Origin: a virus
Lineage: Monodnaviria > Loebvirae > Hofneiviricota > Faserviricetes > Tubulavirales > Inoviridae
IMG/VR virus record: IMGVR_UViG_2684623189_000001
Length of the DNA: 16,012 bases
Strand: one strand, 5' to 3'
Of this stretch, positions 2-16,012 are shown piece after piece. Made by a program: the position numbers and the translations under genes. Under the pieces are notes generated by a model, which saw only the letters and a program-made list of their open reading frames with translations, was not told where the DNA came from and searched no databases. Numbering within the stretch: position 1 is the first letter of the stretch; every line of letters starts with the position of its first letter.

Positions 2-145
2 GACTTTGCCAGAATGATTCCGGCAGCACTGGATAACGTGAAGACTTCATTACCGACAGATTTTCCGGAGAACGTGGTGACGGCAGTTGAAACCAATGTG
101 TTGAGGTTGCACGGTCGGTTAAGCCGAGAATACGGTATTAAGTAA
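2..145 (+). CDS. 3' end of a flanking (probably host) gene, partial; product unknown
   Basis: Frame open from the window edge for 47 codons (…LRLHGRLSREYGIK) to TAA at 143-145. It lies outside the repeated unit. Short, so the open frame is only weakly significant. Confidence 0.3.
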   Translation, partial: DFARMIPAALDNVKTSLPTDFPENVVTAVETNVLRLHGRLSREYGIK

Positions 146-223
146 GATATGGGGTTTTGGTCGTTGTTAATGAGCAGAACAATCATGAACCGCCAACGAC
201 TGGATTCTCCCTTGGTTTATGTT

Positions 224-256
224 GGTGCGCATAATGTACGACTCGTTATGTTGAAA
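224..256 (+). other. dif-like XerC/XerD recombination site at the chromosome-prophage junction (attL-type)
   Basis: GGTGCGCATAA (224-234) matches the XerC-binding arm of the enterobacterial dif site as I recall it, followed by TGTA. After an 11-nt spacer (TGTACGACTCG) comes TTATGTTGAAA (246-256), which resembles the XerD arm TTATGTTAAAT. It sits exactly at the repeat boundary. Confidence 0.6.
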
Positions 257-257
257 A

Positions 258-289
258 GGCCGCTGCGAAAATCGTATCCCGCAGCGGCC
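258..289. terminator. GC-rich hairpin, probable bidirectional rho-independent terminator
   Basis: Perfect 10-bp inverted repeat GGCCGCTGCG / CGCAGCGGCC with a 12-nt loop. On the minus strand it is followed by TTTTCAACAT, downstream of the 159-aa gene; on the plus strand by TCTTT. Confidence 0.55.
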
Positions 290-320
290 TCTTTAGCATA
301 ACGTCATTGTGCGAACCAAT

Positions 321-800
321 TTATATAGAAATGAAAAACTCCTCTTCATTCCTTTTTTTATAATTATCATCCCATATAAGTTTTATTCGGTATTTAGTTT
401 TACTTCCAAAGCTTAGTCCCGCTAAAATTTCAATCCCATGTTGCGGGTGTAATACTTCATATGGAAATTTATCTTCTACATCATGCATGAAAAGATATTC
501 ATTGCCATCGTTATCAGGGAAATGAATTTCTATATTTTTAGCCTCAACTTTCCCTCTATTAAATATCTTGAGTCTATAGTTGTTTTTGGCTATTTTTACG
601 AGGCGGGCACCAAGCTCAGCCTTCATCTCATTAATTGCTGACTTTGTTTCTTTTTCTAGAAGCAACTTACGTAACCTGTCTTGCTCATCCTTTATAACCT
701 TTTGTTCTCTATCACTTTTTCTCGACTTCACTTCTGATGATATGATAGTGTAAATCGATACTACAAGCGCAGCTAAAGCGATGGCATCACTCGTTGTCAT
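321..800 (-). CDS. Hypothetical single-pass membrane protein (N-terminal TM helix, charged helical linker, C-terminal ~90-aa domain); cargo gene
   Basis: 159-aa ORF. N-terminal hydrophobic helix AIALAALVVSIYTIISS, then a K/E/R-rich stretch. Start ATG overlaps the stop of the upstream 91-aa ORF (TAATG); AGGA ribosome-binding site. Markedly AT-rich. No recognisable family. Confidence 0.65.
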   Translation of the reverse strand: MTTSDAIALAALVVSIYTIISSEVKSRKSDREQKVIKDEQDRLRKLLLEKETKSAINEMKAELGARLVKIAKNNYRLKIFNRGKVEAKNIEIHFPDNDGNEYLFMHDVEDKFPYEVLHPQHGIEILAGLSFGSKTKYRIKLIWDDNYKKRNEEEFFISI

Positions 801-1075
801 TATTTAATCCTTATATTTTTACTTCCTTTAAATGCCTTTTTGAGCATATCATTAAACTGTTTTTGAATATCTTTTGTTAACTCTTCTTTTATCTCATCCA
901 CATGGGCGTCAATACTCACCCCGTTTTCTTGGATTAAATCATCATTAGTGAATTCTTTCCCGCAGCCTACACATCTGACGACTTCAGACTCTTCCTCGTG
1001 TTCCATCTCTGTATTTCCGCACACAGGACATAGCAGGGTGATATTTCTATTGTATTTCTCAGGATTTAGTTTCAT
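800..1075 (-). CDS. Hypothetical zinc-ribbon protein (CxxC…CxxC); cargo gene
   Basis: 91-aa ORF with CPVCG …(16 aa)… CVGCG, a C4 zinc-ribbon signature, then an acidic/basic helical tail. AGGAA ribosome-binding site 7 nt upstream. Translationally coupled to the 159-aa ORF. AT-rich. Confidence 0.65.
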   Translation of the reverse strand: MKLNPEKYNRNITLLCPVCGNTEMEHEEESEVVRCVGCGKEFTNDDLIQENGVSIDAHVDEIKEELTKDIQKQFNDMLKKAFKGSKNIRIK

Positions 1076-1103
1076 ATATTTCCTCTCTTCTACGTTTTAT
1101 TGA

Positions 1104-1526
1104 TTACCAGTAATATGAATTTCTTCTGTGCCACCAATAAAGCAGCCCGTATCCGATGATAAGAATTCCGAAAAACATCAACGACATTCCCCAGCCAGTT
1201 CCATACCACGAAACCATATCATCGAAAACCAATCCACCCGTTTCACGTACTCCGGCAGCTTCCTTAAGGATTGGTTTGAATACCGGAATCAGAAGGGCAA
1301 TCGCCAGTGGAGCACCCCAGCGAACAAGACCTGTTTCCATTTTGATCCCGAAAAAGATCCCCGCCCCGACAACAAGCAGCCAGACTATCAGGCCAGGCGC
1401 AGTTTCCAGTGCTGTTTGCCATTCAACATCGAAAGTTTTCATTAGCCAGGCAACAACTGCCAGGCAGAAAGCAAATACGCCGACGACAACCAGTTCAACG
1501 CCGCTTGTTTCGTTGTTTCTACTCAT
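1104..1526 (-). CDS. Hypothetical small integral membrane protein, about 4 TM helices
   Basis: 140-aa ORF with four hydrophobic segments (about aa 10-29, 45-61, 69-83, 113-133) and a W/Y/R-rich C-terminus. AAGGA ribosome-binding site. The opposite-strand ORFs here are low-complexity and implausible. Confidence 0.65.
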   Translation of the reverse strand: MSRNNETSGVELVVVGVFAFCLAVVAWLMKTFDVEWQTALETAPGLIVWLLVVGAGIFFGIKMETGLVRWGAPLAIALLIPVFKPILKEAAGVRETGGLVFDDMVSWYGTGWGMSLMFFGILIIGYGLLYWWHRRNSYYW

Positions 1527-1570
1527 CCTTTTGATCCTTTTTCACTGTTCAAAATTCGCACAATAAAGAA

Positions 1571-1595
1571 CGTGCAGTGTTGGTAATACTGCACG
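1571..1595. terminator. Hairpin between the repressor gene and the cargo genes; putative terminator or attenuator
   Basis: CGTGCAGT / ACTGCACG, 8-bp perfect stem with a 9-nt loop. T-rich on both sides (TTTGTCTCATT on plus, TTCTTTATTG on minus). A second small hairpin GTCTCA-ttcc-TGAGAC lies at 1599-1614. Confidence 0.45.
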
Positions 1596-1625
1596 TTTGT
1601 CTCATTCCTGAGACTGTTAATCCTT

Positions 1626-2072
1626 TTACTCTTCTCCAGACACCGCTTTTTTCATAAACATTTTAGTACTGTAAGTGTATGAACTTAAGGCAGAAACCTG
1701 CCTTGCGAGTGCCAGAATATCTTGTTTTTCCAGTGTCCTGATGTTCCACACGATGAAATTATGTGCGTTAGTGGTTTCTTCATCAGTATATCCATCCGCA
1801 GAAGTGATTAGCTTCCGCTCGGTAGCTTCTTCTTTAACATCAAGAGCATAGCCATAAGCTAAGGTGTTTAAGTCTGCACCCGTAATTTTAGCTATCTGAA
1901 TGATGTCACTGAATTTAGGTTCAGTTTTGCCGGACGCTATCCTGACCAGCGTACTCACGCTAATGCCAGTCTTCTCGGCCAGTTCTTCATAAGTCGAGTG
2001 TTCCAGAATTACCTTTTTGATACGTTCTGCTCTCTGTTTGTCCGCCATAACTTCATGCTCATTGTTGCCCAT
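1626..2072 (-). CDS. XRE/Cro-C1-type helix-turn-helix transcriptional repressor (inovirus lysogeny repressor, RstR-like position)
   Basis: 148 aa. HTH signature YEELAEKTGISVSTLVRIASGKTEP. Divergently transcribed from the Rep gene, the arrangement seen in lysogenic inoviruses. Confidence 0.75.
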   Translation of the reverse strand: MGNNEHEVMADKQRAERIKKVILEHSTYEELAEKTGISVSTLVRIASGKTEPKFSDIIQIAKITGADLNTLAYGYALDVKEEATERKLITSADGYTDEETTNAHNFIVWNIRTLEKQDILALARQVSALSSYTYSTKMFMKKAVSGEE

Positions 2073-2243
2073 CTACTTGGCTCCATCTTAACAGTGGTTT
2101 TTCAATAGTTAGATTTGATGCTCATTTCTGACAATTTAAACATTGCAAATGTATTGACTGTCAGAACTGAGCATATTACATTGTGACCATTCAATCTGCT
2201 CACAAATGACTATTGACACATATTTTGATGGGTGTGACTACTT
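2073..2243. promoter_or_regulatory. Divergent promoter/operator region between repressor and Rep
   Basis: 171-bp AT-rich intergenic region. -35-like hexamers TTGACT (2154-2159) and TTGACA (2213-2218). Inverted repeats TTCTGACA (2126-2133) / TGTCAGAA (2159-2166) and ACATT-GCA-AATGT; recurring TGAC motifs. Confidence 0.5.
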
Positions 2244-3296
2244 ATGATCGACTGGTTTACCGGAATCCTGCCTTGCACACACCGACCGTTACCGGCTGGT
2301 AGTGTCGTCAGCGTCGATGCTGACGGTGCAGTGGAGTGGGAAACAGTAAAACGGTTGACCGTTCGCGGTTCGCATGAGTCCACAATGAAAGTAAGGTCTG
2401 TTGGATCTGATGGTGAAGGTCGGGCAACACATCTCTACATTGACGGTAATCCATCAAAGTTTTTGCAAGGTCACTCTGTTATCGGTTCCGACGATTTGCA
2501 AGGGTTGGTGTTAACAGCTTACGCCAGAATATTGGCATTACTGCATATTCCTCATGATCTACCATCCTATCGGCAGGTCATGGAAGGGCAATTTAAGATC
2601 TCGCGCATCGATATCAATTACATGTATTCATTGTCAACATTAGAAAATGTCCGCGCATGGTTATATGCCGCAGAATTTAAAGCTAAAACTCGCCACGGTC
2701 GCGCCTGTGGTAAAGGTGGCACTGTTTACTTAGGGAAAAACTCCCGTCGTTGGAGCCTGAAATTTTATTCAAAATATGATGAGCATACATCTGGCAAAAA
2801 AGGGCACCAGATGGCAGACGAATTCGTTAAAGCTGGTTTACTGGACTGGTCAAAAGATAAATTACGCATTGAATTAACATTAAGAACAACTGAATTAATT
2901 GATTTGAATCTTACGCTTGGTAATAGCTGGAATATTGAGACGCCCAATAAATTATTCTCTGACTATGTAGGGAGAATAGAAATGAATCAAAATACTATAT
3001 TAACTGATGAAAAAATAATTAATCTCCCAAGAAAAATACAGTCTACATATTTATTGTGGAAGCAGGGCGCGAACATGAAAGAGATGTTACCGAAACCTAC
3101 ATTCTACCGACACCGTAAAGAATTACTTTCTTTCGGAATAGATATTAACTTTTATTGTGAGTCACCGGATTCTAATAACGTTGTTCCGTTGGTTCGTACT
3201 CTTGAAGCCAAACCAGCCAAAATTCCATCATGGGTTTATGAGAAAGGTTTAATTTTCGATTATAACCGTATTTCACATGCCAGTAACTGGCATTAA
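2244..3296 (+). CDS. Rolling-circle replication initiation protein (Rep_trans / pII-like)
   Basis: 350 aa. Motif GTVYLGKNSRRWSLKFYSKYDE fits the Rep_trans-type pattern with catalytic Tyr. First gene of the plus-strand module, as in inoviruses. Confidence 0.75.
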   Translation: MIDWFTGILPCTHRPLPAGSVVSVDADGAVEWETVKRLTVRGSHESTMKVRSVGSDGEGRATHLYIDGNPSKFLQGHSVIGSDDLQGLVLTAYARILALLHIPHDLPSYRQVMEGQFKISRIDINYMYSLSTLENVRAWLYAAEFKAKTRHGRACGKGGTVYLGKNSRRWSLKFYSKYDEHTSGKKGHQMADEFVKAGLLDWSKDKLRIELTLRTTELIDLNLTLGNSWNIETPNKLFSDYVGRIEMNQNTILTDEKIINLPRKIQSTYLLWKQGANMKEMLPKPTFYRHRKELLSFGIDINFYCESPDSNNVVPLVRTLEAKPAKIPSWVYEKGLIFDYNRISHASNWH

Positions 3297-3307
3297 AGGA
3301 GAGTGAT

Positions 3308-3625
3308 ATGTCTAATTATGGTCTTTTTGTAAAAGGTAAAATGCTTGGTGCTCGCCAGCGTAATAAGGTCAATGGTCAGGGATACTATAATGAAATTGGT
3401 GTTGGCTTAGAGATTCCTGATGGTTTTGGCGGCACTAAGCAAGACCAGATTATTATTCGTGTATCTCAGGCTCTTGTTAATGCCGGTGTAATGAATCAGG
3501 CAAATAATTTTATCGGTAAGTTAGTCCAGATACCTGTATATGTTCGCGTCTGGTCAATGGAGGGGAGGGAAGGAGTAACTTATAACATTTCATCAGATGG
3601 CGGCATTACTGAAATAAAAGGCTGA
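3308..3625 (+). CDS. Putative ssDNA-binding protein (pV/RstB-like by position)
   Basis: 105 aa. Strong AAGGAG ribosome-binding site. Immediately downstream of Rep; Gly-rich, beta-type composition. Function is inferred from synteny only. Confidence 0.5.
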   Translation: MSNYGLFVKGKMLGARQRNKVNGQGYYNEIGVGLEIPDGFGGTKQDQIIIRVSQALVNAGVMNQANNFIGKLVQIPVYVRVWSMEGREGVTYNISSDGGITEIKG

Positions 3626-3627
3626 TT

Positions 3628-3879
3628 ATGGATGCATCAGGTTTCGATATTCAGTTTGATAATCATATTCCTGAAAATGGTTACCGTATTGAAGGTTATT
3701 TATGTAATGCGAACAATGCAAAAGAATGTCAGGCAATAATGGTACGTTCTGAACCATTTCATCAAATTGATTATTCTGCAATGGGAAATTACTGGACATT
3801 AGGTTTTGGCTCTGTCCTGCTGCTCTGGCTTTTTTCTGTAGGTGTGGGACAGGTAATAAAGATGGTTCGTACTGCTTGA
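3628..3879 (+). CDS. Hypothetical small protein with C-terminal TM helix (possible minor virion or assembly protein)
   Basis: 83 aa. C-terminal hydrophobic helix WTLGFGSVLLLWLFSVGVG followed by a basic tail. Tightly packed between the ssb-like and coat genes. Confidence 0.4.
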   Translation: MDASGFDIQFDNHIPENGYRIEGYLCNANNAKECQAIMVRSEPFHQIDYSAMGNYWTLGFGSVLLLWLFSVGVGQVIKMVRTA

Positions 3880-3913
3880 ATGCGAACCTTTAAAATGTAA
3901 TGGAGATAGAGTT

Positions 3914-4147
3914 ATGTTTAAAAAAATCGTTAGTTTTCTGGCTGTACCTGCATTAATGGCTGTTTCTGGCGCGACTTTCGCTGCAGAAGGAGCGGCATCA
4001 AGTGGTGTTGATTTATCGCCGCTGACGAACAGCATTGATTTCAGTACAGTTCTGGTTGCGATTATGGCCGTTGCTGCTTCACTGGTAACACTTTATGCCG
4101 GTGTCGCTGGCGTTCGCTGGGTATTGCGTACCGTTAAATCCGCATAA
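3914..4147 (+). CDS. Major coat protein (pVIII-like)
   Basis: 77 aa. Signal peptide MFKKIVSFLAVPALMAVSGATFA with AxA cleavage motif. Mature part has an acidic N-terminus, a hydrophobic core and a basic C-terminus (RWVLRTVKSA). GGAG ribosome-binding site. Confidence 0.85.
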   Translation: MFKKIVSFLAVPALMAVSGATFAAEGAASSGVDLSPLTNSIDFSTVLVAIMAVAASLVTLYAGVAGVRWVLRTVKSA

Positions 4148-4211
4148 ATTCATTATTCATGGGCGATGCAATATCGCCCGTTTTACTTGAGGTTATTATG
4201 GAGATTGAATT

Positions 4212-5924
4212 ATGGAAATTGGGTTCCCTTTTATGGGGGATCGTCTCAGCTTATGTCGTTATTCTTGGGCTAAGAGGCTGACGGTTTATTCCTTTATTTT
4301 TTCCTTTCTCTGGGTTTCCTTTCCCCGATATTCATATTCATTTGTACCAGCAATTGCAGCAGTGGCTGCGCGGGCTGTTATTCCTAAAGTCGTTGGCCGG
4401 GTGCTTGTTCGTCGCTTTGCTGCCAATGATGCGATTTATACGGCATCACAGCTTACAGCAACCCGTGTTTTTGTTGGCCGCGCTGCGGCTAATGCTGCCG
4501 AATACTTGCCTGCTGCCTCATCATACAAAATGAGCGGTGTTGCAACGTGGGCGGGTATTGCTGCTGCTGTATCATCTTTTGTTCCGTCTTCTTTGAGTTC
4601 ATCTGACGGCTCGGTAATGGTAATGACTAACGGTAAAAAGATTTCCGATAATTTATATGAAGTAACGTACAGTGGTCAAAGTGGTGAAAGTAAGACGATA
4701 ACCGTTAATTTTGAACCACAGGAATTAAGTCCGGTAATCCTTCATGTTAGTCGTAATAATGTGGATGCGGGTTCTCCAGTTGTAGGTGTTGAAACAGGAT
4801 ATTCCACGCCAGATAATGCACTTTATTATTATCAGGATTCGAAAGAGCTAATTTATTACTATGGTGATAATCCAACTGAAATTGCCAGAAATTATCTTAA
4901 TGACTATAACTCGCGTACTTATACTGAAACACTAACGAATTTTGAACGCACTGTGACGAATAAAGTTGTCAACAGTAATGGAGATGTATCCTTTACTGAA
5001 CAGAATTATAAGTTTACTTATCCTTCCTCATTTTATGAAATACCTGAGATTACACACTTGTATAGCAACCCGGCCGCATCTTCATTTCCCGCAGGTATTC
5101 CCATGTATGAAAATGTAGCAGGGCTTCCCATGTATTACAGCGTTGCTTATTTAACAGCAGGAAAGCAATATCAGTATCACAACACGCCTTGTAAAACGAC
5201 TAATCAGTCAAATGGTGGATATTCGACGATTTGTGCCGTTCCTGAAAAAGAGGATTACACCGCAAAAGATATTGATGAAAAGAGTGAGCTTACTATCTGG
5301 ACCAATACCAAATATAAAGCCATGACGGAAGTACTGGAGGCTGGAAATATTGAGTCCATGATTGATTATCTGGAGTATCTTGATAGTGTTAGTGTATCGC
5401 CAGCACTTCTTGCCGACATGATTAACGAGCTGTGGTCTGAAGCTGCCGTTAATGCCGATTATAACGGCTTACCGTTTAAAGAGGTTTCACCGGCTGAAGT
5501 AACTTCTGCGATGTCGGAACTTAGGCTATCTCCAACGTTATTAGATATGCTTTCACCTGTATCTGACAGTGCAGGGGCTGACGTCAATATTGATATTACC
5601 ATTAATAACAACTCAGGATCTGACACTGGAAATAATGGCAATATAGATTTGGGAGAAGATCCCGGTGTAAAAGAGCCTGAGCTTGAAGAAACGCCAACGG
5701 CAAGAGATATTTTAACGCCAATTATTAACTTGTTGCCTTTTACAAACGAATTTAACATCGGCTCTCGTTCAGCATCCTGCCCCGTTGTTGAATTCAGCGT
5801 GTTTAATCACCAGTACAGAATTGACTCCCATTGTCCGTTAATTGAGCAGAACAGAAGCGCCGTAGAAACCATATTTCTGATTATATGGGGATTTGTTGCG
5901 CTCCGTATTATTCTGAGTGCCTAA
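4212..5924 (+). CDS. Minor coat / adsorption protein (pIII-like); exact start uncertain
   Basis: 570 aa. Follows the major coat gene. Gly/Ser/Asn-rich linker (NNNSGSDTGNNGNIDLGEDPG) and C-terminal membrane anchor (IFLIIWGFVALRIILSA). N-terminus is atypical; alternative start at Met8 (4233). Confidence 0.65.
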   Translation: MEIGFPFMGDRLSLCRYSWAKRLTVYSFIFSFLWVSFPRYSYSFVPAIAAVAARAVIPKVVGRVLVRRFAANDAIYTASQLTATRVFVGRAAANAAEYLPAASSYKMSGVATWAGIAAAVSSFVPSSLSSSDGSVMVMTNGKKISDNLYEVTYSGQSGESKTITVNFEPQELSPVILHVSRNNVDAGSPVVGVETGYSTPDNALYYYQDSKELIYYYGDNPTEIARNYLNDYNSRTYTETLTNFERTVTNKVVNSNGDVSFTEQNYKFTYPSSFYEIPEITHLYSNPAASSFPAGIPMYENVAGLPMYYSVAYLTAGKQYQYHNTPCKTTNQSNGGYSTICAVPEKEDYTAKDIDEKSELTIWTNTKYKAMTEVLEAGNIESMIDYLEYLDSVSVSPALLADMINELWSEAAVNADYNGLPFKEVSPAEVTSAMSELRLSPTLLDMLSPVSDSAGADVNIDITINNNSGSDTGNNGNIDLGEDPGVKEPELEETPTARDILTPIINLLPFTNEFNIGSRSASCPVVEFSVFNHQYRIDSHCPLIEQNRSAVETIFLIIWGFVALRIILSA

Positions 5925-5936
5925 AGGAGTGCAACT

Positions 5937-6224
5937 ATGTTTGGGATTCTGATTAGTGCATTAAATACTTTGTTAGGTTTTGTATTCCGGTCATTGATTA
6001 TTAAATTCGTCGTATTCTTTGCGCTGTATTTTGTAGTCCAGGGCTTCGTTGAAATCCTTGTTGAGTTACTGCCAGATTCAAGCAATCTCTCATCGCTGTT
6101 TGCCAATTTATCAGACGGATTCTGGTACTTCATTAACCTGAGTAAATTACCACAGGGGATTAGTATGATTATCTCCGCAATGGCTACTCGTTTTATTATT
6201 CGACGTATTCCTGTTATAGGGTGA
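5937..6224 (+). CDS. Minor coat protein (pVI-like)
   Basis: 95 aa, strongly hydrophobic. AAGGAG ribosome-binding site. Lies between the pIII-like and Zot/pI genes, as pVI does in inoviruses. Confidence 0.6.
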   Translation: MFGILISALNTLLGFVFRSLIIKFVVFFALYFVVQGFVEILVELLPDSSNLSSLFANLSDGFWYFINLSKLPQGISMIISAMATRFIIRRIPVIG

Positions 6225-6227
6225 GTT

Positions 6228-7253
6228 ATGGCTATTTCTGCATATATTGGCATACCCGGCTCAGGAAAAAGTTATGAAGCCGTTTGCAATGTCATTATTC
6301 CGGCATTTACCAGCGGCCGGAGAGTTGTGACGAACATTTATGGTTTACAAAAAGATAAAATCACCGAACGTTATCCTGATGCAACGGGAGAAATTATTGT
6401 TGTGGATAATGATGATGTGCTTAAAGCAGATTTCTTTCCTTTTAAAGGTGGGGAAGGGAGCTTTTGCCAGTTTGGTGATTTAATTGTTATTGATGAAGCA
6501 TGGCGAATCTTCGGTAGCGATAAGGATATGACGGCTGAGAAGAAATCATTTATTGCTGAACATCGTCATTTTACGCACCCTGAAACGGGTATTAGCTGTG
6601 ATTTGGTTATTGTAAATCAGTCACTTTCTAATATTGCTCGCTTTCTGAAAGACAAAATAGAAACAACTTACCGGATGCGCAAGCTGAAAGCGTTGGGCCT
6701 GAATAATCATTACTGCATTGACGTATATTCAGGCCACAAAATCTATAAAAGCAACCTCGTCACCAGTTATCGCAATAAATATAACCCTGATATTTTTGAA
6801 CTTTACAAAAGTTATGAAGGAAATAACGGTAATGAAAAGCAGACAGATAAACGCCAGAGCATCTGGAATTCTGGCAAAGTCAGGTTCTTTCTTGTGCTTT
6901 TTCCATTGATGTTTATCGGGTCAGGCTGGCTGATTTACTCATTTTTCAGCACGTTTGGCCGAAGCGATCCCTCGCCAGATTTGACTACAACAGATGTACG
7001 TGATGCGGCCATGTTTCGTTCTTCCGCTGCTACTCCAGCACCAGATACTCCCTCAGAACCAGCTGAACCGCCACTTTCAACCGAGTGGCGTATATCAGGG
7101 AGAATGACCAGTGAAGGCAGGGCGTTTGTGATTCTTGTTAATGGTGCCGGTGTTTTGCGTGCCGTTCCTGCATCCAGTTTTAATTACAAAGGGATGTTGA
7201 TGAGCGGAATTATTGATGGTGAGCGTGTGACGCTTTATACGGGGAAAAAATAA
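6228..7253 (+). CDS. Zot / pI-family morphogenesis (assembly) ATPase
   Basis: 341 aa. Walker A GIPGSGKSY, Walker B LIVIDEAW, single TM segment (VRFFLVLFPLMFIGSGWLIYSFF) followed by a periplasmic C-terminal region. Confidence 0.85.
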   Translation: MAISAYIGIPGSGKSYEAVCNVIIPAFTSGRRVVTNIYGLQKDKITERYPDATGEIIVVDNDDVLKADFFPFKGGEGSFCQFGDLIVIDEAWRIFGSDKDMTAEKKSFIAEHRHFTHPETGISCDLVIVNQSLSNIARFLKDKIETTYRMRKLKALGLNNHYCIDVYSGHKIYKSNLVTSYRNKYNPDIFELYKSYEGNNGNEKQTDKRQSIWNSGKVRFFLVLFPLMFIGSGWLIYSFFSTFGRSDPSPDLTTTDVRDAAMFRSSAATPAPDTPSEPAEPPLSTEWRISGRMTSEGRAFVILVNGAGVLRAVPASSFNYKGMLMSGIIDGERVTLYTGKK

Positions 7254-8497
7254 TGAAAAAGATTTTACTCGCATTAACGCTACTATTTTCTTCATGTGCT
7301 TTCGCAGGGTCAGAGCTTGAATTAAATAAAGTCAAGCTACCGGAGGCTATTTCTCTTATTTACAGTGAGGTGCTTAAAGTCCCGTATATGCTAGATCCAC
7401 AGCTTGTTAATGATGAACGAATGATTACATTCAGGTTAACACCTGATATTGATGAACGGGAATTTGTAACCCGTTATCTTGGCAATATGAACATTCGAAT
7501 ATGGACGAAAAAGGGTGTTGATTTTATCGCGCCCTATACGCCGAAAGAGCCGGTTAAGCCACGTTATACATGGACTTATACGCCTCAGTACCGTTCTGTT
7601 GCCTACCTGTCTGATATTCTTGGCGGCTACGTTTCAGGCTCCTTCAATAACAGTGGAGCCGTGATTTCTGACGATTCGCTAAAAGGTTCATCAGGGGCAA
7701 GCAACTACATCAATCGAACCGGTGATATTCTGGTTTATTATGGTACGAAAGAGGATATCGCCATCCTGAAAACACTGGTCACTTCGCTGGATACGATGAG
7801 TGATGAAGTGGTTGTTTCTGGTTATGTTTTTGAGGTTCAGACCTCGCAGTCTGACGGCTCCGGCATTCTTTTAGCGGCTAAAATTCTGTCTGATAAATTC
7901 AATATTTCAGTTGGTGCTGCCGGACTGGATAATTTTATCAATATTCGAACCGGCTCCATTGATGCCATTTTCAATCTGCTGAAAACCGACAGTCGTTTTA
8001 CTGTTGTCAGTGCGCCACGACTGCGGGTAAAAAATAATGCCTCAGCGTCTTTTTCAGTCGGCTCTGATGTGCCAGTACTGGGCAGTGTTACGGTGAATAA
8101 CAATACGACAACGCAATCCGTTGAATATCGTTCCAGCGGTGTTTTGTTTAACGTGACGCCATCAATCAAAAGTCGGACAATGGATCTCAAGATTCAGCAG
8201 CAGCTTTCCAACTTTGTGACCACTGAAACCGGCGTCAATAACTCGCCAACCCTTATCAAGCGTGATGTAACAACCGAAGTCAGCCTTGCAGATGGTGATA
8301 TTATTTTACTTGGTGGCCTTGCTGAACAGAAAGACAGTAAGGCCAGTTCCGGCTGGAGCTTCTTCGGTTCCCGTACCAGTGAAAGCAACAAGACTGATAT
8401 TATGGTGATGCTTCAGGTCAGAAAGGTTGACCGGAGCAGGGCGACGCCCCGCAGCGCCGCGAGGAGCGGTGAACTGTTCCGGGACAACCTGAACTGA
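7253..8497 (+). CDS. pIV-type secretin (phage export channel)
   Basis: 414 aa. Signal peptide MKKILLALTLLFSSCAFA. C-terminal secretin-like region (VVSAPRLRV…VPVLGSV…DGDIILLGGLAE). Start overlaps the Zot/pI stop (TAATG). Confidence 0.8.
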   Translation: MKKILLALTLLFSSCAFAGSELELNKVKLPEAISLIYSEVLKVPYMLDPQLVNDERMITFRLTPDIDEREFVTRYLGNMNIRIWTKKGVDFIAPYTPKEPVKPRYTWTYTPQYRSVAYLSDILGGYVSGSFNNSGAVISDDSLKGSSGASNYINRTGDILVYYGTKEDIAILKTLVTSLDTMSDEVVVSGYVFEVQTSQSDGSGILLAAKILSDKFNISVGAAGLDNFINIRTGSIDAIFNLLKTDSRFTVVSAPRLRVKNNASASFSVGSDVPVLGSVTVNNNTTTQSVEYRSSGVLFNVTPSIKSRTMDLKIQQQLSNFVTTETGVNNSPTLIKRDVTTEVSLADGDIILLGGLAEQKDSKASSGWSFFGSRTSESNKTDIMVMLQVRKVDRSRATPRSAARSGELFRDNLN

Positions 8498-8585
8498 TTG
8501 TATGGATTTTTATTATGGCGTTAACTTTTATGGGGTATGAACAGTACGACATCTTCTAGGTATTCAGTTACTTAGAGGATTTATT

Positions 8586-8834
8586 ATGTCTGTAAAAAAT
8601 AAGGCGCGTGACCGACTTCCCGGTGGCCGCCTTAAGTCTTATCGTCGTGTAGGTTCACATTTTGCCAGTTGTGCCAGATGGTTTGATAAATCGCCGTCCT
8701 GGTATCGCAATATGATGATGACCAGGCCTGAGCGTCGTGAAGTCAGAAGGCTTCTCAATCAGGTAATGCGTGGTCATGATGCTGACGGCATTGCTTTTCC
8801 GGTCAGTCATCGTCCGTTTGTTTATTGGTGGTGA
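8586..8834 (+). CDS. Hypothetical small basic protein
   Basis: 82 aa, Arg/Trp-rich. GAGG ribosome-binding site 8 nt upstream. In the accessory region between secretin and att site. No family recognised. Confidence 0.45.
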   Translation: MSVKNKARDRLPGGRLKSYRRVGSHFASCARWFDKSPSWYRNMMMTRPERREVRRLLNQVMRGHDADGIAFPVSHRPFVYWW

Positions 8835-9018
8835 ATTTCGTACGCACGAAATTTCACGCATAAACACCAGACAAAAAATCGTTAACTGTCTGTTTTGAAA
8901 GATAACGCCGGTCAGTGACAAAACTTGTTTTGTTGCTGTCCGGGGTTGGCCAAGCCGTACAGTTTCCATTTTCAGCGTTATGGCTGATTCGGCGCGGCAG
9001 CATTCATCGGGGCTTATC

Positions 9019-9228
9019 ATGGAAAAATTCATGACACATCAGGAGCTGAAAGTGATGCTTCTTAAAGATCCAGCATTCCGGGCTGCTTATGAAGCTGAGA
9101 GCCAGAACCCGCAATCCGGTTACCAGATTATCCGGCATCATGGTGATGGCACTGAAGAAGTGGTGTTTGATTCTCGTGTATCAGGTACAGATTTACCAAC
9201 TAACTGGATGAACAGGCCTGATTGGTGA
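9019..9228 (+). CDS. Hypothetical small protein (ORF track places the start at 8980; 9019 preferred)
   Basis: About 69 aa from the ATG at 9019, which has a GGGG ribosome-binding site. N-terminal motif ELKVMLLKDPAFRAAYEA. Last gene before the att site. Confidence 0.4.
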   Translation: MEKFMTHQELKVMLLKDPAFRAAYEAESQNPQSGYQIIRHHGDGTEEVVFDSRVSGTDLPTNWMNRPDW

Positions 9229-9368
9229 GGTCAGGCCGTTCACTTACTGCTGACAGACATTTGATTCTGATTCGTTTGGAGAAACGGATGATTTTGAATC
9301 ACTGTCGATAGTAGCCAGTTGACGGCCAGTGTCAACGATTCCCGCCAGATTCTGCCATCCTTACCATT

Positions 9369-9401
9369 GGTGCGCATAATGTACGACTCGTTATGTTGAA
9401 A
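9369..9401 (+). other. dif-like XerC/XerD site at the copy1/copy2 junction (attP-type)
   Basis: Identical to 224-256 but flanked on the left by prophage sequence rather than chromosomal flank. Confidence 0.6.
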
Positions 9402-9402
9402 A

Positions 9403-9434
9403 GGCCGCTGCGAAAATCGTATCCCGCAGCGGCC
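9403..9434. terminator. GC-rich hairpin terminator (copy 2)
   Basis: Identical to 258-289. In the array it also lies downstream of the plus-strand secretin and small-ORF genes of copy 1. Confidence 0.55.
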
Positions 9435-9465
9435 TCTTTAGCATAACGTCATTGTGCGAACCAAT

Positions 9466-9945
9466 TTATATAGAAATGAAAAACTCCTCTTCATTCCTTT
9501 TTTTATAATTATCATCCCATATAAGTTTTATTCGGTATTTAGTTTTACTTCCAAAGCTTAGTCCCGCTAAAATTTCAATCCCATGTTGCGGGTGTAATAC
9601 TTCATATGGAAATTTATCTTCTACATCATGCATGAAAAGATATTCATTGCCATCGTTATCAGGGAAATGAATTTCTATATTTTTAGCCTCAACTTTCCCT
9701 CTATTAAATATCTTGAGTCTATAGTTGTTTTTGGCTATTTTTACGAGGCGGGCACCAAGCTCAGCCTTCATCTCATTAATTGCTGACTTTGTTTCTTTTT
9801 CTAGAAGCAACTTACGTAACCTGTCTTGCTCATCCTTTATAACCTTTTGTTCTCTATCACTTTTTCTCGACTTCACTTCTGATGATATGATAGTGTAAAT
9901 CGATACTACAAGCGCAGCTAAAGCGATGGCATCACTCGTTGTCAT
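9466..9945 (-). CDS. Hypothetical single-pass membrane protein, cargo gene (copy 2)
   Basis: Identical translation to 321-800 at offset +9145. Confidence 0.65.
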   Translation of the reverse strand: MTTSDAIALAALVVSIYTIISSEVKSRKSDREQKVIKDEQDRLRKLLLEKETKSAINEMKAELGARLVKIAKNNYRLKIFNRGKVEAKNIEIHFPDNDGNEYLFMHDVEDKFPYEVLHPQHGIEILAGLSFGSKTKYRIKLIWDDNYKKRNEEEFFISI

Positions 9946-10220
9946 TATTTAATCCTTATATTTTTACTTCCTTTAAATGCCTTTTTGAGCATATCATTAA
10001 ACTGTTTTTGAATATCTTTTGTTAACTCTTCTTTTATCTCATCCACATGGGCGTCAATACTCACCCCGTTTTCTTGGATTAAATCATCATTAGTGAATTC
10101 TTTCCCGCAGCCTACACATCTGACGACTTCAGACTCTTCCTCGTGTTCCATCTCTGTATTTCCGCACACAGGACATAGCAGGGTGATATTTCTATTGTAT
10201 TTCTCAGGATTTAGTTTCAT
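9945..10220 (-). CDS. Hypothetical zinc-ribbon protein, cargo gene (copy 2)
   Basis: Identical translation to 800-1075. Confidence 0.65.
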   Translation of the reverse strand: MKLNPEKYNRNITLLCPVCGNTEMEHEEESEVVRCVGCGKEFTNDDLIQENGVSIDAHVDEIKEELTKDIQKQFNDMLKKAFKGSKNIRIK

Positions 10221-10248
10221 ATATTTCCTCTCTTCTACGTTTTATTGA

Positions 10249-10671
10249 TTACCAGTAATATGAATTTCTTCTGTGCCACCAATAAAGCAGCCCGTATCCG
10301 ATGATAAGAATTCCGAAAAACATCAACGACATTCCCCAGCCAGTTCCATACCACGAAACCATATCATCGAAAACCAATCCACCCGTTTCACGTACTCCGG
10401 CAGCTTCCTTAAGGATTGGTTTGAATACCGGAATCAGAAGGGCAATCGCCAGTGGAGCACCCCAGCGAACAAGACCTGTTTCCATTTTGATCCCGAAAAA
10501 GATCCCCGCCCCGACAACAAGCAGCCAGACTATCAGGCCAGGCGCAGTTTCCAGTGCTGTTTGCCATTCAACATCGAAAGTTTTCATTAGCCAGGCAACA
10601 ACTGCCAGGCAGAAAGCAAATACGCCGACGACAACCAGTTCAACGCCGCTTGTTTCGTTGTTTCTACTCAT
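10249..10671 (-). CDS. Hypothetical 4-TM membrane protein (copy 2)
   Basis: Identical translation to 1104-1526. Confidence 0.65.
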   Translation of the reverse strand: MSRNNETSGVELVVVGVFAFCLAVVAWLMKTFDVEWQTALETAPGLIVWLLVVGAGIFFGIKMETGLVRWGAPLAIALLIPVFKPILKEAAGVRETGGLVFDDMVSWYGTGWGMSLMFFGILIIGYGLLYWWHRRNSYYW

Positions 10672-10715
10672 CCTTTTGATCCTTTTTCACTGTTCAAAAT
10701 TCGCACAATAAAGAA

Positions 10716-10740
10716 CGTGCAGTGTTGGTAATACTGCACG
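10716..10740. terminator. Hairpin between repressor and cargo genes (copy 2)
   Basis: Identical to 1571-1595. Confidence 0.45.
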
Positions 10741-10770
10741 TTTGTCTCATTCCTGAGACTGTTAATCCTT

Positions 10771-11217
10771 TTACTCTTCTCCAGACACCGCTTTTTTCAT
10801 AAACATTTTAGTACTGTAAGTGTATGAACTTAAGGCAGAAACCTGCCTTGCGAGTGCCAGAATATCTTGTTTTTCCAGTGTCCTGATGTTCCACACGATG
10901 AAATTATGTGCGTTAGTGGTTTCTTCATCAGTATATCCATCCGCAGAAGTGATTAGCTTCCGCTCGGTAGCTTCTTCTTTAACATCAAGAGCATAGCCAT
11001 AAGCTAAGGTGTTTAAGTCTGCACCCGTAATTTTAGCTATCTGAATGATGTCACTGAATTTAGGTTCAGTTTTGCCGGACGCTATCCTGACCAGCGTACT
11101 CACGCTAATGCCAGTCTTCTCGGCCAGTTCTTCATAAGTCGAGTGTTCCAGAATTACCTTTTTGATACGTTCTGCTCTCTGTTTGTCCGCCATAACTTCA
11201 TGCTCATTGTTGCCCAT
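10771..11217 (-). CDS. XRE-type HTH repressor (copy 2)
   Basis: Identical translation to 1626-2072. Confidence 0.75.
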   Translation of the reverse strand: MGNNEHEVMADKQRAERIKKVILEHSTYEELAEKTGISVSTLVRIASGKTEPKFSDIIQIAKITGADLNTLAYGYALDVKEEATERKLITSADGYTDEETTNAHNFIVWNIRTLEKQDILALARQVSALSSYTYSTKMFMKKAVSGEE

Positions 11218-11388
11218 CTACTTGGCTCCATCTTAACAGTGGTTTTTCAATAGTTAGATTTGATGCTCATTTCTGACAATTTAAACATTGCAAATGTATT
11301 GACTGTCAGAACTGAGCATATTACATTGTGACCATTCAATCTGCTCACAAATGACTATTGACACATATTTTGATGGGTGTGACTACTT
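11218..11388. promoter_or_regulatory. Divergent promoter/operator region (copy 2)
   Basis: Identical to 2073-2243. Confidence 0.5.
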
Positions 11389-12441
11389 ATGATCGACTGG
11401 TTTACCGGAATCCTGCCTTGCACACACCGACCGTTACCGGCTGGTAGTGTCGTCAGCGTCGATGCTGACGGTGCAGTGGAGTGGGAAACAGTAAAACGGT
11501 TGACCGTTCGCGGTTCGCATGAGTCCACAATGAAAGTAAGGTCTGTTGGATCTGATGGTGAAGGTCGGGCAACACATCTCTACATTGACGGTAATCCATC
11601 AAAGTTTTTGCAAGGTCACTCTGTTATCGGTTCCGACGATTTGCAAGGGTTGGTGTTAACAGCTTACGCCAGAATATTGGCATTACTGCATATTCCTCAT
11701 GATCTACCATCCTATCGGCAGGTCATGGAAGGGCAATTTAAGATCTCGCGCATCGATATCAATTACATGTATTCATTGTCAACATTAGAAAATGTCCGCG
11801 CATGGTTATATGCCGCAGAATTTAAAGCTAAAACTCGCCACGGTCGCGCCTGTGGTAAAGGTGGCACTGTTTACTTAGGGAAAAACTCCCGTCGTTGGAG
11901 CCTGAAATTTTATTCAAAATATGATGAGCATACATCTGGCAAAAAAGGGCACCAGATGGCAGACGAATTCGTTAAAGCTGGTTTACTGGACTGGTCAAAA
12001 GATAAATTACGCATTGAATTAACATTAAGAACAACTGAATTAATTGATTTGAATCTTACGCTTGGTAATAGCTGGAATATTGAGACGCCCAATAAATTAT
12101 TCTCTGACTATGTAGGGAGAATAGAAATGAATCAAAATACTATATTAACTGATGAAAAAATAATTAATCTCCCAAGAAAAATACAGTCTACATATTTATT
12201 GTGGAAGCAGGGCGCGAACATGAAAGAGATGTTACCGAAACCTACATTCTACCGACACCGTAAAGAATTACTTTCTTTCGGAATAGATATTAACTTTTAT
12301 TGTGAGTCACCGGATTCTAATAACGTTGTTCCGTTGGTTCGTACTCTTGAAGCCAAACCAGCCAAAATTCCATCATGGGTTTATGAGAAAGGTTTAATTT
12401 TCGATTATAACCGTATTTCACATGCCAGTAACTGGCATTAA
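11389..12441 (+). CDS. Rolling-circle replication initiation protein (copy 2)
   Basis: Identical translation to 2244-3296. Confidence 0.75.
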   Translation: MIDWFTGILPCTHRPLPAGSVVSVDADGAVEWETVKRLTVRGSHESTMKVRSVGSDGEGRATHLYIDGNPSKFLQGHSVIGSDDLQGLVLTAYARILALLHIPHDLPSYRQVMEGQFKISRIDINYMYSLSTLENVRAWLYAAEFKAKTRHGRACGKGGTVYLGKNSRRWSLKFYSKYDEHTSGKKGHQMADEFVKAGLLDWSKDKLRIELTLRTTELIDLNLTLGNSWNIETPNKLFSDYVGRIEMNQNTILTDEKIINLPRKIQSTYLLWKQGANMKEMLPKPTFYRHRKELLSFGIDINFYCESPDSNNVVPLVRTLEAKPAKIPSWVYEKGLIFDYNRISHASNWH

Positions 12442-12452
12442 AGGAGAGTGAT

Positions 12453-12770
12453 ATGTCTAATTATGGTCTTTTTGTAAAAGGTAAAATGCTTGGTGCTCGC
12501 CAGCGTAATAAGGTCAATGGTCAGGGATACTATAATGAAATTGGTGTTGGCTTAGAGATTCCTGATGGTTTTGGCGGCACTAAGCAAGACCAGATTATTA
12601 TTCGTGTATCTCAGGCTCTTGTTAATGCCGGTGTAATGAATCAGGCAAATAATTTTATCGGTAAGTTAGTCCAGATACCTGTATATGTTCGCGTCTGGTC
12701 AATGGAGGGGAGGGAAGGAGTAACTTATAACATTTCATCAGATGGCGGCATTACTGAAATAAAAGGCTGA
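12453..12770 (+). CDS. Putative ssDNA-binding protein (copy 2)
   Basis: Identical translation to 3308-3625. Confidence 0.5.
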   Translation: MSNYGLFVKGKMLGARQRNKVNGQGYYNEIGVGLEIPDGFGGTKQDQIIIRVSQALVNAGVMNQANNFIGKLVQIPVYVRVWSMEGREGVTYNISSDGGITEIKG

Positions 12771-12772
12771 TT

Positions 12773-13024
12773 ATGGATGCATCAGGTTTCGATATTCAGT
12801 TTGATAATCATATTCCTGAAAATGGTTACCGTATTGAAGGTTATTTATGTAATGCGAACAATGCAAAAGAATGTCAGGCAATAATGGTACGTTCTGAACC
12901 ATTTCATCAAATTGATTATTCTGCAATGGGAAATTACTGGACATTAGGTTTTGGCTCTGTCCTGCTGCTCTGGCTTTTTTCTGTAGGTGTGGGACAGGTA
13001 ATAAAGATGGTTCGTACTGCTTGA
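12773..13024 (+). CDS. Hypothetical small membrane protein (copy 2)
   Basis: Identical translation to 3628-3879. Confidence 0.4.
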   Translation: MDASGFDIQFDNHIPENGYRIEGYLCNANNAKECQAIMVRSEPFHQIDYSAMGNYWTLGFGSVLLLWLFSVGVGQVIKMVRTA

Positions 13025-13058
13025 ATGCGAACCTTTAAAATGTAATGGAGATAGAGTT

Positions 13059-13292
13059 ATGTTTAAAAAAATCGTTAGTTTTCTGGCTGTACCTGCATTA
13101 ATGGCTGTTTCTGGCGCGACTTTCGCTGCAGAAGGAGCGGCATCAAGTGGTGTTGATTTATCGCCGCTGACGAACAGCATTGATTTCAGTACAGTTCTGG
13201 TTGCGATTATGGCCGTTGCTGCTTCACTGGTAACACTTTATGCCGGTGTCGCTGGCGTTCGCTGGGTATTGCGTACCGTTAAATCCGCATAA
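13059..13292 (+). CDS. Major coat protein (copy 2)
   Basis: Identical translation to 3914-4147. Confidence 0.85.
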   Translation: MFKKIVSFLAVPALMAVSGATFAAEGAASSGVDLSPLTNSIDFSTVLVAIMAVAASLVTLYAGVAGVRWVLRTVKSA

Positions 13293-13356
13293 ATTCATTA
13301 TTCATGGGCGATGCAATATCGCCCGTTTTACTTGAGGTTATTATGGAGATTGAATT

Positions 13357-15069: not shown

Positions 15070-15081
15070 AGGAGTGCAACT

Positions 15082-15369
15082 ATGTTTGGGATTCTGATTA
15101 GTGCATTAAATACTTTGTTAGGTTTTGTATTCCGGTCATTGATTATTAAATTCGTCGTATTCTTTGCGCTGTATTTTGTAGTCCAGGGCTTCGTTGAAAT
15201 CCTTGTTGAGTTACTGCCAGATTCAAGCAATCTCTCATCGCTGTTTGCCAATTTATCAGACGGATTCTGGTACTTCATTAACCTGAGTAAATTACCACAG
15301 GGGATTAGTATGATTATCTCCGCAATGGCTACTCGTTTTATTATTCGACGTATTCCTGTTATAGGGTGA
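15082..15369 (+). CDS. pVI-like minor coat protein (copy 2)
   Basis: Identical translation to 5937-6224. Confidence 0.6.
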   Translation: MFGILISALNTLLGFVFRSLIIKFVVFFALYFVVQGFVEILVELLPDSSNLSSLFANLSDGFWYFINLSKLPQGISMIISAMATRFIIRRIPVIG

Positions 15370-15372
15370 GTT

Positions 15373-16012
15373 ATGGCTATTTCTGCATATATTGGCATAC
15401 CCGGCTCAGGAAAAAGTTATGAAGCCGTTTGCAATGTCATTATTCCGGCATTTACCAGCGGCCGGAGAGTTGTGACGAACATTTATGGTTTACAAAAAGA
15501 TAAAATCACCGAACGTTATCCTGATGCAACGGGAGAAATTATTGTTGTGGATAATGATGATGTGCTTAAAGCAGATTTCTTTCCTTTTAAAGGTGGGGAA
15601 GGGAGCTTTTGCCAGTTTGGTGATTTAATTGTTATTGATGAAGCATGGCGAATCTTCGGTAGCGATAAGGATATGACGGCTGAGAAGAAATCATTTATTG
15701 CTGAACATCGTCATTTTACGCACCCTGAAACGGGTATTAGCTGTGATTTGGTTATTGTAAATCAGTCACTTTCTAATATTGCTCGCTTTCTGAAAGACAA
15801 AATAGAAACAACTTACCGGATGCGCAAGCTGAAAGCGTTGGGCCTGAATAATCATTACTGCATTGACGTATATTCAGGCCACAAAATCTATAAAAGCAAC
15901 CTCGTCACCAGTTATCGCAATAAATATAACCCTGATATTTTTGAACTTTACAAAAGTTATGAAGGAAATAACGGTAATGAAAAGCAGACAGATAAACGCC
16001 AGAGCATCTGGA
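15373..16012 (+). CDS. Zot/pI-family assembly ATPase, 5' portion (copy 2, truncated by window end)
   Basis: Starts at 6228+9145 with the same sequence, including the Walker A motif. No stop before the window ends. Confidence 0.8.
   Translation, partial: MAISAYIGIPGSGKSYEAVCNVIIPAFTSGRRVVTNIYGLQKDKITERYPDATGEIIVVDNDDVLKADFFPFKGGEGSFCQFGDLIVIDEAWRIFGSDKDMTAEKKSFIAEHRHFTHPETGISCDLVIVNQSLSNIARFLKDKIETTYRMRKLKALGLNNHYCIDVYSGHKIYKSNLVTSYRNKYNPDIFELYKSYEGNNGNEKQTDKRQSIW

Follow-up and report, generated by a model that had tools for sequence, protein, structure and literature searches.

The window, a stretch of 16,012 bases from an Escherichia coli chromosome, carries two head-to-tail copies of a filamentous prophage (period 9145). 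Here we consider one gene in the repressor-side arm of this prophage, located on the minus strand (1104..1526) and coding for a protein of 140 residues with four predicted transmembrane (TM) helices. We find that the gene is genuine, is under strong purifying selection and is an accessory ('moron'-type), dispensable gene of the phage rather than a core one. In dif-integrating inoviruses of Enterobacterales, it is the commonest first gene of a variable slot that receives cargo genes next to the regulator. Judging by position, topology, selection and neighbourhood, the most plausible, though unproven, reading is that of an immunity or exclusion factor. More specifically, we propose, tentatively and with less than even confidence, that this inner-membrane protein is expressed during lysogeny and, acting on the periplasmic side, bars the entry of phage DNA or toxins from outside.

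A conserved gene for a four-helix membrane protein

The gene, its second copy and its ribosome-binding signal are located as follows:

1104..1526, minus strand: coding sequence of the 140-residue four-helix membrane protein (phrog_4174), copy 1, with ATG at 1524-1526 and TAA at 1104-1106
10249..10671, minus strand: identical second copy of the coding sequence, in the second tandem prophage (from the list of open reading frames)
1535..1539, minus strand: Shine-Dalgarno motif AAGGA, 8 nt before the ATG (read from the sequence)

The open reading frame (ORF) is present twice because the prophage is duplicated in tandem. An in-frame stop lies 18 nt upstream of its start, and the AAGGA motif is found likewise at L004, L005 and L008 (loci compared with the window are numbered with the letter L). 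Comparison with seven homologues (83-98% nucleotide identity) gave ratios of nonsynonymous to synonymous substitution rates (dN/dS) of 0.04-0.18, or 0.04-0.13 for the six homologues that differ at more than eight sites. Most substitutions fall in third codon positions (for example, 13/9/51 relative to L007), and dS reaches 0.6-0.9. The gene is thus under strong purifying selection, and the high dS disfavours constraint at the nucleotide level; we therefore rejected a cis element as the cause of the conservation. Could the conservation instead reflect a plus-strand ORF of 136 residues (1156..1566) or a noncoding element? The antisense ORF is open even in distant homologues and has dN/dS values of 0.08-0.24. 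However, its frame shares wobble positions with the sense frame, and this alone would produce both properties. In each comparison dN/dS is lower for the sense frame, whose product has a consistent pattern of TM segments, a confidently modelled fold and homologues that can still be recognised at ~20% identity; the antisense product, in contrast, is of low complexity and rich in P, S, T and R. We consider this explanation highly improbable and reject the antisense ORF as a real gene; most likely, it is an artefact.

The hydrophobicity profile of the protein (Kyte-Doolittle) has four hydrophobic segments, at approximately residues 10-29, 44-61, 70-87 and 111-132, which coincide with the helices of the AlphaFold2 (AF2) model (6-32, 36-63, 67-91 and 111-137). 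With a diverse family alignment the model reached a predicted local distance difference test (pLDDT) score of 85.8 and a predicted template modelling (pTM) score of 0.72; with close relatives only, pLDDT was 66. Across 30 family members the mean charge is -0.7 for loop 1, -1.7 for loop 3 and +1.2 for the C-terminal tail. With a net acidic charge in loops 1 and 3 and a basic tail, the protein is predicted to have both termini in the cytoplasm (N-in/C-in) and the 23-residue loop 3 in the periplasm. The four hydrophobic helices and the charge distribution together are those of a predicted integral inner-membrane protein. Family-wide, conservation peaks at residues 106-114 and 118-131, the most conserved positions being P73, P85, L87 and A91 (end of TM3), W107-Y108-G109 (entry of TM4) and G125-Y126. 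If the N-in/C-in topology is right, the conserved surface of the protein faces the periplasm. An earlier description, made from the letters of the window alone (hereafter the original prediction), had proposed a small four-helix membrane protein gene at this place. The ORF, the hydrophobic segments, the fold and dN/dS agree that this gene is real, and both the model and the hydrophobicity profile support its four TM helices.

Only one profile matched the 140-residue protein, namely phrog_4174 (PHROGs v4, annotated as 'unknown function'), over positions 1-140 of 140 with E=1.8e-85. All 30 members of the wide alignment match this PHROG and no other. Scans of the protein against Pfam (E<=0.1), NCBIfam and PADLOC assigned it to no family, and a Pfam scan of the 30 relatives gave scattered weak matches only, again with no family. 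The structural side was equally bare: a profile search of the family against PDB returned chance matches (LH1 beta, PrgK), and searches of PDB and BFVD with the fold model returned no match of note. The INPHARED phage collection gave no match to the gene by megablast or tblastn. When 1.84 billion cluster representatives were searched exhaustively with a profile, 41 proteins were retrieved. The wider family comprises proteins of 110-160 residues that share the same motifs down to ~20% identity. Close homologues (50-98% identity) are confined to Enterobacterales (Escherichia, Salmonella, Klebsiella, Citrobacter, Phytobacter, Pantoea, Lonsdalea, Yersinia enterocolitica and Mixta) and are all labeled 'hypothetical'. 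The same label is attached to the RefSeq family entries (WP_021579045.1 / WP_000089310.1, 'hypothetical protein') and, every time, to the exact window protein, which occurs on 571 contigs. The same gene is found in the same position in strains UTI89 and NU14, and, by the gene order in PMC4266046, it is probably 'orf1a' of prophage CUS-1. The ORF is therefore already catalogued (phrog_4174, RefSeq), and no family member has a known function or a characterised relative.

These results agree with the earlier view that the gene stands outside the canonical inovirus set. Pfam, NCBIfam and PHROG scans revealed no homology to coat or assembly proteins (pI/Zot, pIV, pIII, pVI, pVII/pIX, pVIII), and the Zot, secretin, DUF2523/pVI-like, G5P and G2P genes of the window are all assigned to other ORFs. 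A holin was also considered and rejected: the only holin match among the 30 relatives was Phage_holin_3_6 (E=0.33, in 2 of them), and the 9.1-kb phage has no endolysin gene to which it could be linked in a lytic cassette.

Position of the gene in a variable slot

The surroundings of the gene in the first prophage copy comprise the following features:

258..289, minus strand: GC-rich hairpin GGCCGCTGCG...CGCAGCGGCC, then TTTTC on the minus strand (fold about -40 kcal/mol with flanks; inside the repeated unit)
321..800, minus strand: cargo gene 2 (c159), a 159-residue protein with an N-terminal TM segment (phrog_6723, 7e-95)
800..1075, minus strand: cargo gene 1, a 91-residue ECs_2282-family CxxC zinc-ribbon protein (NCBIfam NF047912, 2.9e-18)
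1569..1597, minus strand: hairpin 2, a 10-bp perfect stem AACGTGCAGT/ACTGCACGTT with a 9-nt loop, then TTCTTTATT (fold -13 kcal/mol)
1599..1614, minus strand: hairpin 1, GTCTCA-GGAA-TGAGAC, directly after the repressor stop (fold -6.8 kcal/mol)
1626..2072, minus strand: 148-residue helix-turn-helix (HTH) repressor, Cro/C1-type, in an RstR-like position (Pfam HTH_3 1.6e-9, phrog_3557 4e-74)
2244..3296: G2P replication gene, divergent from the repressor

Genomic context was sampled from four centres: the 140-residue gene, the repressor, the backbone (G2P) and the cargo. In all 44 inovirus placements a small regulator gene of the same orientation precedes the gene, at a distance of 69-314 nt. The regulator itself varies. 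It is an HTH protein of 148-198 residues in 32 placements (as low as 37-40% identical to the repressor of the window), an unrelated protein of 60-89 residues in 10 and another protein of 70 residues in one; Y. enterocolitica phages have two small proteins in the regulator position. All 10 places with an identical repressor carry the gene, combined with five different cargo sets.

The gene is likewise spread over distinct phage backbones, namely the CUS-1 type, the Rosenbergiella/Izhakiella type and Ff-like types (with coatGP8, DUF5455 and G3P_pilus-bind). The Rosenbergiella/Izhakiella backbone has an unrelated replication protein and a secretin (G4P) only ~26% identical, and yet the 140-residue protein is 86-98% identical between phages that differ to this extent (88% where G4P has 26%), so that it does not diverge in step with the structural genes. 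In Ff-like backbones, homologues of 40% and 74% identity occupy the same position. At the same time, the gene is not universal even within one backbone. Among 27 viral contigs with the same G2P and enough upstream DNA, 20 have it and 7 do not; in the latter, the cargo follows directly after the hairpins (e.g. a CAP12/Pycsar-type TIR protein or a Fic/DOC protein). Conservation in related inoviruses, left as a question by the original prediction, is therefore real and extends to other backbones but is incomplete. A virion or assembly component can be ruled out, as the protein lacks the corresponding homology, is independent of the backbone and is dispensable; phages with structural genes that are unrelated or only ~26% identical have it in common.

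Among 5,426 complete E. coli genomes, the gene was found in 127 (232 places, with a median of 2 and a maximum of 16 per genome) and the G2P gene in 114. The best match was at least 99% identical to the window copy in only 4 of 128 E. coli records for the 140-residue gene, compared with 96 of 115 for G2P. Its alleles follow the cargo: identity is 98.6% with the same cargo versus 95.4% with different cargo, the corresponding values for the same and a different regulator being 95.9% and 95.5%. The allele of the window is itself exceptional in that it is closest to alleles paired with a ~370-residue cargo. The gene is thus best described as the commonest first gene of a variable slot extending from hairpin 2 to the hairpin at 258-289, and not as a part of the backbone, because 7 of the 27 contigs lack it, the backbone ends after hairpin 2 and the alleles track the cargo. 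For the same reasons the backbone membership implied by the original prediction is too strong. The base composition on which it relied is indeed closer to the phage (GC content: gene 0.48, phage unit 0.419, downstream pair 0.34-0.355), but the gene stands at the top of the backbone range.

The repressor and the 140-residue gene are co-oriented, as the original prediction says, and lie 99 nt apart, but the spacer contains two hairpins (1599-1614 and 1569-1597) instead of the single one described before. Hairpin 1 exists in two versions, each tied to one regulator type; the alternative, GTACCA-CGAA-TGGTAC, differs by two compensatory pair changes and goes with the 60-residue regulator type. The stem of hairpin 2, on the other hand, is invariant in all CUS-1-type phages examined (~30 distinct versions), including those devoid of the four-TM gene. 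Hairpin 2 may act as a terminator or attenuator. Since the invariance of its stem exceeds the needs of a terminator, it may also be a cis site (an origin, or a packaging or protein-binding site). Rfam had nothing for the hairpin region. In phages with different cargo, sequence similarity stops ~20 nt after hairpin 2, which marks the backbone-side edge of the slot. The opposite hairpin (258..289) is the probable terminator closing the unit of repressor, four-TM gene and cargo just inside the left attachment site (attL). At one locus (L035:1-994), hairpins 1 and 2 are as in the window and yet are followed by a four-TM homologue of only 40% identity; deep allelic lineages thus circulate within one phage type.

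The slot (258..1568 in the window) accommodates at least 15 unrelated gene sets (loci L019-L028, L038-L059 and L070-L097). They include an Aga-REase/DpnII-MboI-like nuclease (1e-34) with DUF6953, a CAP12/Pycsar TIR protein, Fic/DOC and several pairs without assigned function. The cargo may differ even between adjacent prophage copies in one genome, as in L019/L020. At least 10 cargo sets that are unrelated to each other stand behind a nearly identical 140-residue protein (97-99% at the amino acid level), and the regulator in front may be the same or a different one. Conversely, among 26 metagenomic c159-like loci, the zinc-ribbon gene is directly upstream of c159 in 24 and a gene of the four-TM family is present in 11, the zinc-ribbon and c159 pair occurring without such a gene in at least 12. 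Near the c159 loci that lack it, no known inovirus backbone was recognisable. In the window, the start of the 159-residue gene overlaps the zinc-ribbon stop, whereas 28 nt separate the 140-residue gene from the zinc-ribbon gene, which has its own ribosome-binding site. The suggestion that the three genes form one system thus fails in both directions, and an obligate three-gene system is rejected. The zinc-ribbon protein and the 159-residue TM/coiled-coil protein form an autonomous two-gene module, sometimes accompanied by a third gene of 123-127 residues (L105-L130), and the zinc-ribbon protein has a weak PADLOC match to the candidate system PDC-S64 (4.8e-7). Just past the cargo of an Ff-like E. 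coli dif prophage we noticed a 358-residue TolA-domain protein (L034:9813-10889); if it were a TolA decoy, it would bear on filamentous-phage or colicin entry.

Homologues also occur outside inoviruses. A 35%-identical one (BLASTP) is the last gene of a tight operon of 108-, 161- and 138-residue proteins adjoining a type II cyclic-oligonucleotide-based antiphage signalling system (CBASS; CD-NTase, E1/E2-like, JAB and SAVED); this arrangement was seen both on a chromosome of Enterobacter and on IncHI2 plasmids from Raoultella and Citrobacter. Another, ~25% identical, follows a DUF6471 protein and precedes either a PAAR-Amidase_2-immunity cassette or a 777-residue protein; in a further lineage, a conserved membrane protein of 166-168 residues is located beyond it. 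The Mixta homologue stands alone near Hcp, in an apparent dif region. In Rosenbergiella (L006:10424-15400), Hcp, a split Amidase_2 and a signal-peptide protein lie between a full and a partial four-TM copy, next to a c159 fragment, which suggests successive elements piling up at dif.

A proposed exclusion factor and alternative roles

What speaks for an immunity or exclusion factor is the combination of a constant position, a membrane fold, purifying selection, dispensability and independence from both backbone and cargo. From the backbone independence we argue that the protein acts on the host rather than on the virion. The gene shares its strand with the repressor, whereas the replication and assembly operon is on the other strand; expression in the lysogen is therefore most likely, and transcription would probably read through the two hairpins that follow the repressor. 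Placed at the periplasmic face of the inner membrane, the protein would block the uptake of DNA or protein. The outcome would be superinfection exclusion or defence, analogous to P22 SieA, T4 Imm and Pf PfsE, and, speculatively, the target might be the TolQRA-dependent entry route of filamentous phages. We also counted in favour the exchange of the gene among unrelated inoviruses and the neighbourhoods rich in defence and competition genes, both in the slot (nuclease, TIR, Fic) and beside distant homologues (CBASS, PAAR-amidase). As for precedents, accessory genes of Pseudomonas inoviruses have been shown to cause superinfection exclusion (PMC6813254), and resident YpfPhi reportedly gives partial protection against superinfection (PMC4266046).

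Several points weigh against this interpretation. Hairpin 2 with its T-rich tract could stop transcription before the 140-residue gene, and a promoter/terminator scan found no sigma-70-like promoter on the minus strand. The scan also missed hairpin 2 and the attL-side hairpin, because their loops exceed its limit, and its result thus carries limited weight for co-transcription. Between 2 and 16 copies are common in lysogens, and neighbouring copies may even differ in cargo; exclusion of relatives, if there is any, must therefore be leaky, unless the arrays arise otherwise. The protection by YpfPhi is not creditable to the phrog_4174 family, because infectious YpfPhi has unrelated ORFs in the repressor-side arm and, according to the review, no counterpart of the gene (PMC4266046). 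Finally, a location beside defence genes says little about a gene residing in a general cargo hotspot. Since the arrays indicate incomplete exclusion, the hotspot association is weak and we infer both expression and phenotype, our confidence in an exclusion factor remains below even.

Might the protein instead be a shared membrane anchor or effector that works with any downstream cargo, including the zinc-ribbon and 159-residue pair, with the variable sensor or enzyme signalling to the constant membrane protein? It is the first gene, with the cargo directly behind, in all 44 placements, and its alleles co-segregate with cargo type (98.6% versus 95.4%) and not with regulator type. The trio of TM protein, zinc-ribbon and c159 recurs in three backbones, one set having diverged together (40/54/64% identity), and the 35%-identical homologue closes a tight operon. 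Nevertheless, we regard such a role as unlikely. Co-segregation of alleles and cargo needs nothing beyond physical linkage. A nearly identical protein stands before at least 10 unrelated cargo sets, at least 12 of 26 loci have the zinc-ribbon and c159 pair but no family member, and the TIR and Fic cargoes occupy the slot without the four-TM gene. The 28-nt gap and separate ribosome-binding site before the zinc-ribbon gene also differ from the overlap that joins zinc-ribbon and c159.

A bolder form of the exclusion hypothesis, to which we give little credence, is that phrog_4174 proteins are new inner-membrane gatekeepers blocking Tol-dependent import on the periplasmic side. They would mediate cross-exclusion among heteroimmune dif inoviruses and possibly resistance to group A colicins; the lineages of 38-41% identity in the same slot would then differ in specificity, and the homologues next to CBASS and PAAR cassettes would act as defence genes by themselves. 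If this were true, CUS-1-like prophages would owe to the 140-residue gene some of their fitness effect in extraintestinal pathogenic E. coli.

The protein might also guard the lysogen from competitors as an orphan immunity protein, directed against a toxin that targets membranes (for instance, a pore-forming bacteriocin or a type VI secretion system effector). Immunity proteins to A-type pore-forming colicins have four TM helices and both termini in the cytoplasm. The 140-residue protein recalls them in its predicted helix number and topology and in being an accessory gene of a mobile element. Family members are located beside PAAR-Amidase_2, near Hcp (Mixta) and near the Hcp-amidase island (Rosenbergiella), and several deep allelic lineages (38-41% identity) hold the same position in related phages, as specificity variants would. 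Unlike colicin immunity genes, however, the gene has no cognate toxin gene adjacent to it in the inovirus loci, and its product matched neither the Pfam colicin-immunity families nor any other immunity family. The nearby amidase effectors have small signal-peptide immunity-like genes of their own, the PAAR cassette looks inserted between the four-TM gene and its 166-168-residue partner gene, and the Hcp associations are explicable by the accumulation of elements at dif. On balance, we judge this role improbable.

We are similarly doubtful about a modulator of the phage life cycle, be it a membrane sensor or brake acting on the repressor, replication or extrusion, or a protein relieving envelope stress during chronic secretion. 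The tight and universal link to a regulator gene would fit such a role, the more so as non-inovirus homologues, too, follow small putative DNA-binding proteins (such as DUF6471), and so would the presence in ~74% of relatives and in 127 E. coli genomes versus 114 for the backbone. Against it, the gene combines freely with unrelated regulators, replication modules and assembly modules, can be dispensed with by phages of the same backbone (7 of 27 relatives) and has alleles that do not follow regulator type, and homologues exist without any inovirus.

An exclusion factor would have analogues of several kinds. P22 SieA and T4 Imm are dispensable for phage growth, act on the host envelope and stop incoming DNA. 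Like them, the 140-residue protein is a phage-encoded, accessory and, by our prediction, small polytopic inner-membrane protein of comparable size. Unlike them, it is encoded by a nonlytic single-stranded DNA inovirus, and Pfam, PDB and BFVD searches detected no sequence or fold similarity. PfsE of Pf phages is much shorter and is encoded within the Pf core region, whereas the present protein has 140 residues and four helices, is encoded in the cargo arm on the repressor side and has no sequence relationship to PfsE. The two have in common that they are small inner-membrane proteins of inoviruses (predicted in the present case). SieA is a superinfection-exclusion inner-membrane protein of P22 (PMC10883804), and PfsE, which inhibits type IV pili, is a small inner-membrane protein of an inovirus that protects the lysogen from superinfection (PMC8764522). 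The third system, CTXphi, resembles the window phage in its RstR locus (the neighbouring gene at 1626..2072 is in the rstR position), dif integration and tandem arrays. RstR immunity is transcriptional and type-specific, whereas the four-TM protein is common to phages with different regulators; CTXphi has no counterpart of it in the repressor-side arm (PMC4266046).

The role of the repressor-side arm has been a question since the phage was described (PMC4266046). Our analysis identifies this arm as a cargo hotspot with defence-like genes, in which the four-TM protein is the most constant occupant across unrelated backbones. About 2% of complete E. coli genomes, UTI89, NU14 and NC101 among them, have CUS-1/YpfPhi-like prophages at dif; such prophages are also present in Salmonella, Klebsiella, Yersinia and plant-associated Enterobacterales. 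Should the protein block entry, it would add a new protein family to those engaged in exclusion and defence and would help to explain how these phages persist and interact in tandem mixed arrays. Even so, the job would be of a known kind, performed by an unrelated family, and an accessory membrane protein next to an inovirus repressor is unsurprising. What is notable is its constancy across backbones, regulators and cargoes, the tiny and sharply defined family, and the relatives beside CBASS and PAAR cassettes. Without exclusion activity, the protein would still represent a compact membrane family that is under strong selection and has no known relative.

The prophage pair at dif and related elements

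The two prophage copies and their boundaries are as follows:

14..145: 3' end of hipA, the host flank of the prophage array
222..9366 and 9367..16012: tandem copies of a CUS-1/YpfPhi-like inovirus at dif beside hipA (self-comparison of the window)
224..238, plus strand: dif-like core GGTGCGCATAATGTA at the host-prophage junction (attL; copies identical from 222 on)
9369-9383: the same GGTGCGCATAATGTA core at the junction of copies 1 and 2

From position 222 on, the copies are free of mismatches relative to each other (offset 9145). We take GGTGCGCATAATGTA to be dif on account of the E. coli dif sequence. The description of the integration site in PMC4266046 was also used for this assignment, and RefSeq genomes show the same arrangement and gene order at hipBA. 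The order is cargo pair, 140-residue gene and HTH repressor, followed divergently by G2P, G5P, small membrane proteins, a pIII-like protein, DUF2523, Zot, secretin and two small ORFs. The phage of the window is of the CUS-1/YpfPhi type, that is, a dif-integrating inovirus forming tandem arrays (PMC4266046).

Some minor observations concern individual phages of this type. The pIII-like ORF (4212..5924) has 570 residues when called mechanically, while RefSeq annotates 520 residues with the start at 4362. A 9,565-bp circular 'untypable plasmid' (NZ_CP128883.1, L037) is evidently the replicative form of a CUS-1-like phage. Finally, remnants of the left arm, which consist of the regulator and/or the four-TM gene and/or cargo and have no structural genes (L060:3122-4290, L009:1792-2980 and L014:9001-9411), sit beside full prophages or alone near dif, hinting that the arm is retained after phage decay.

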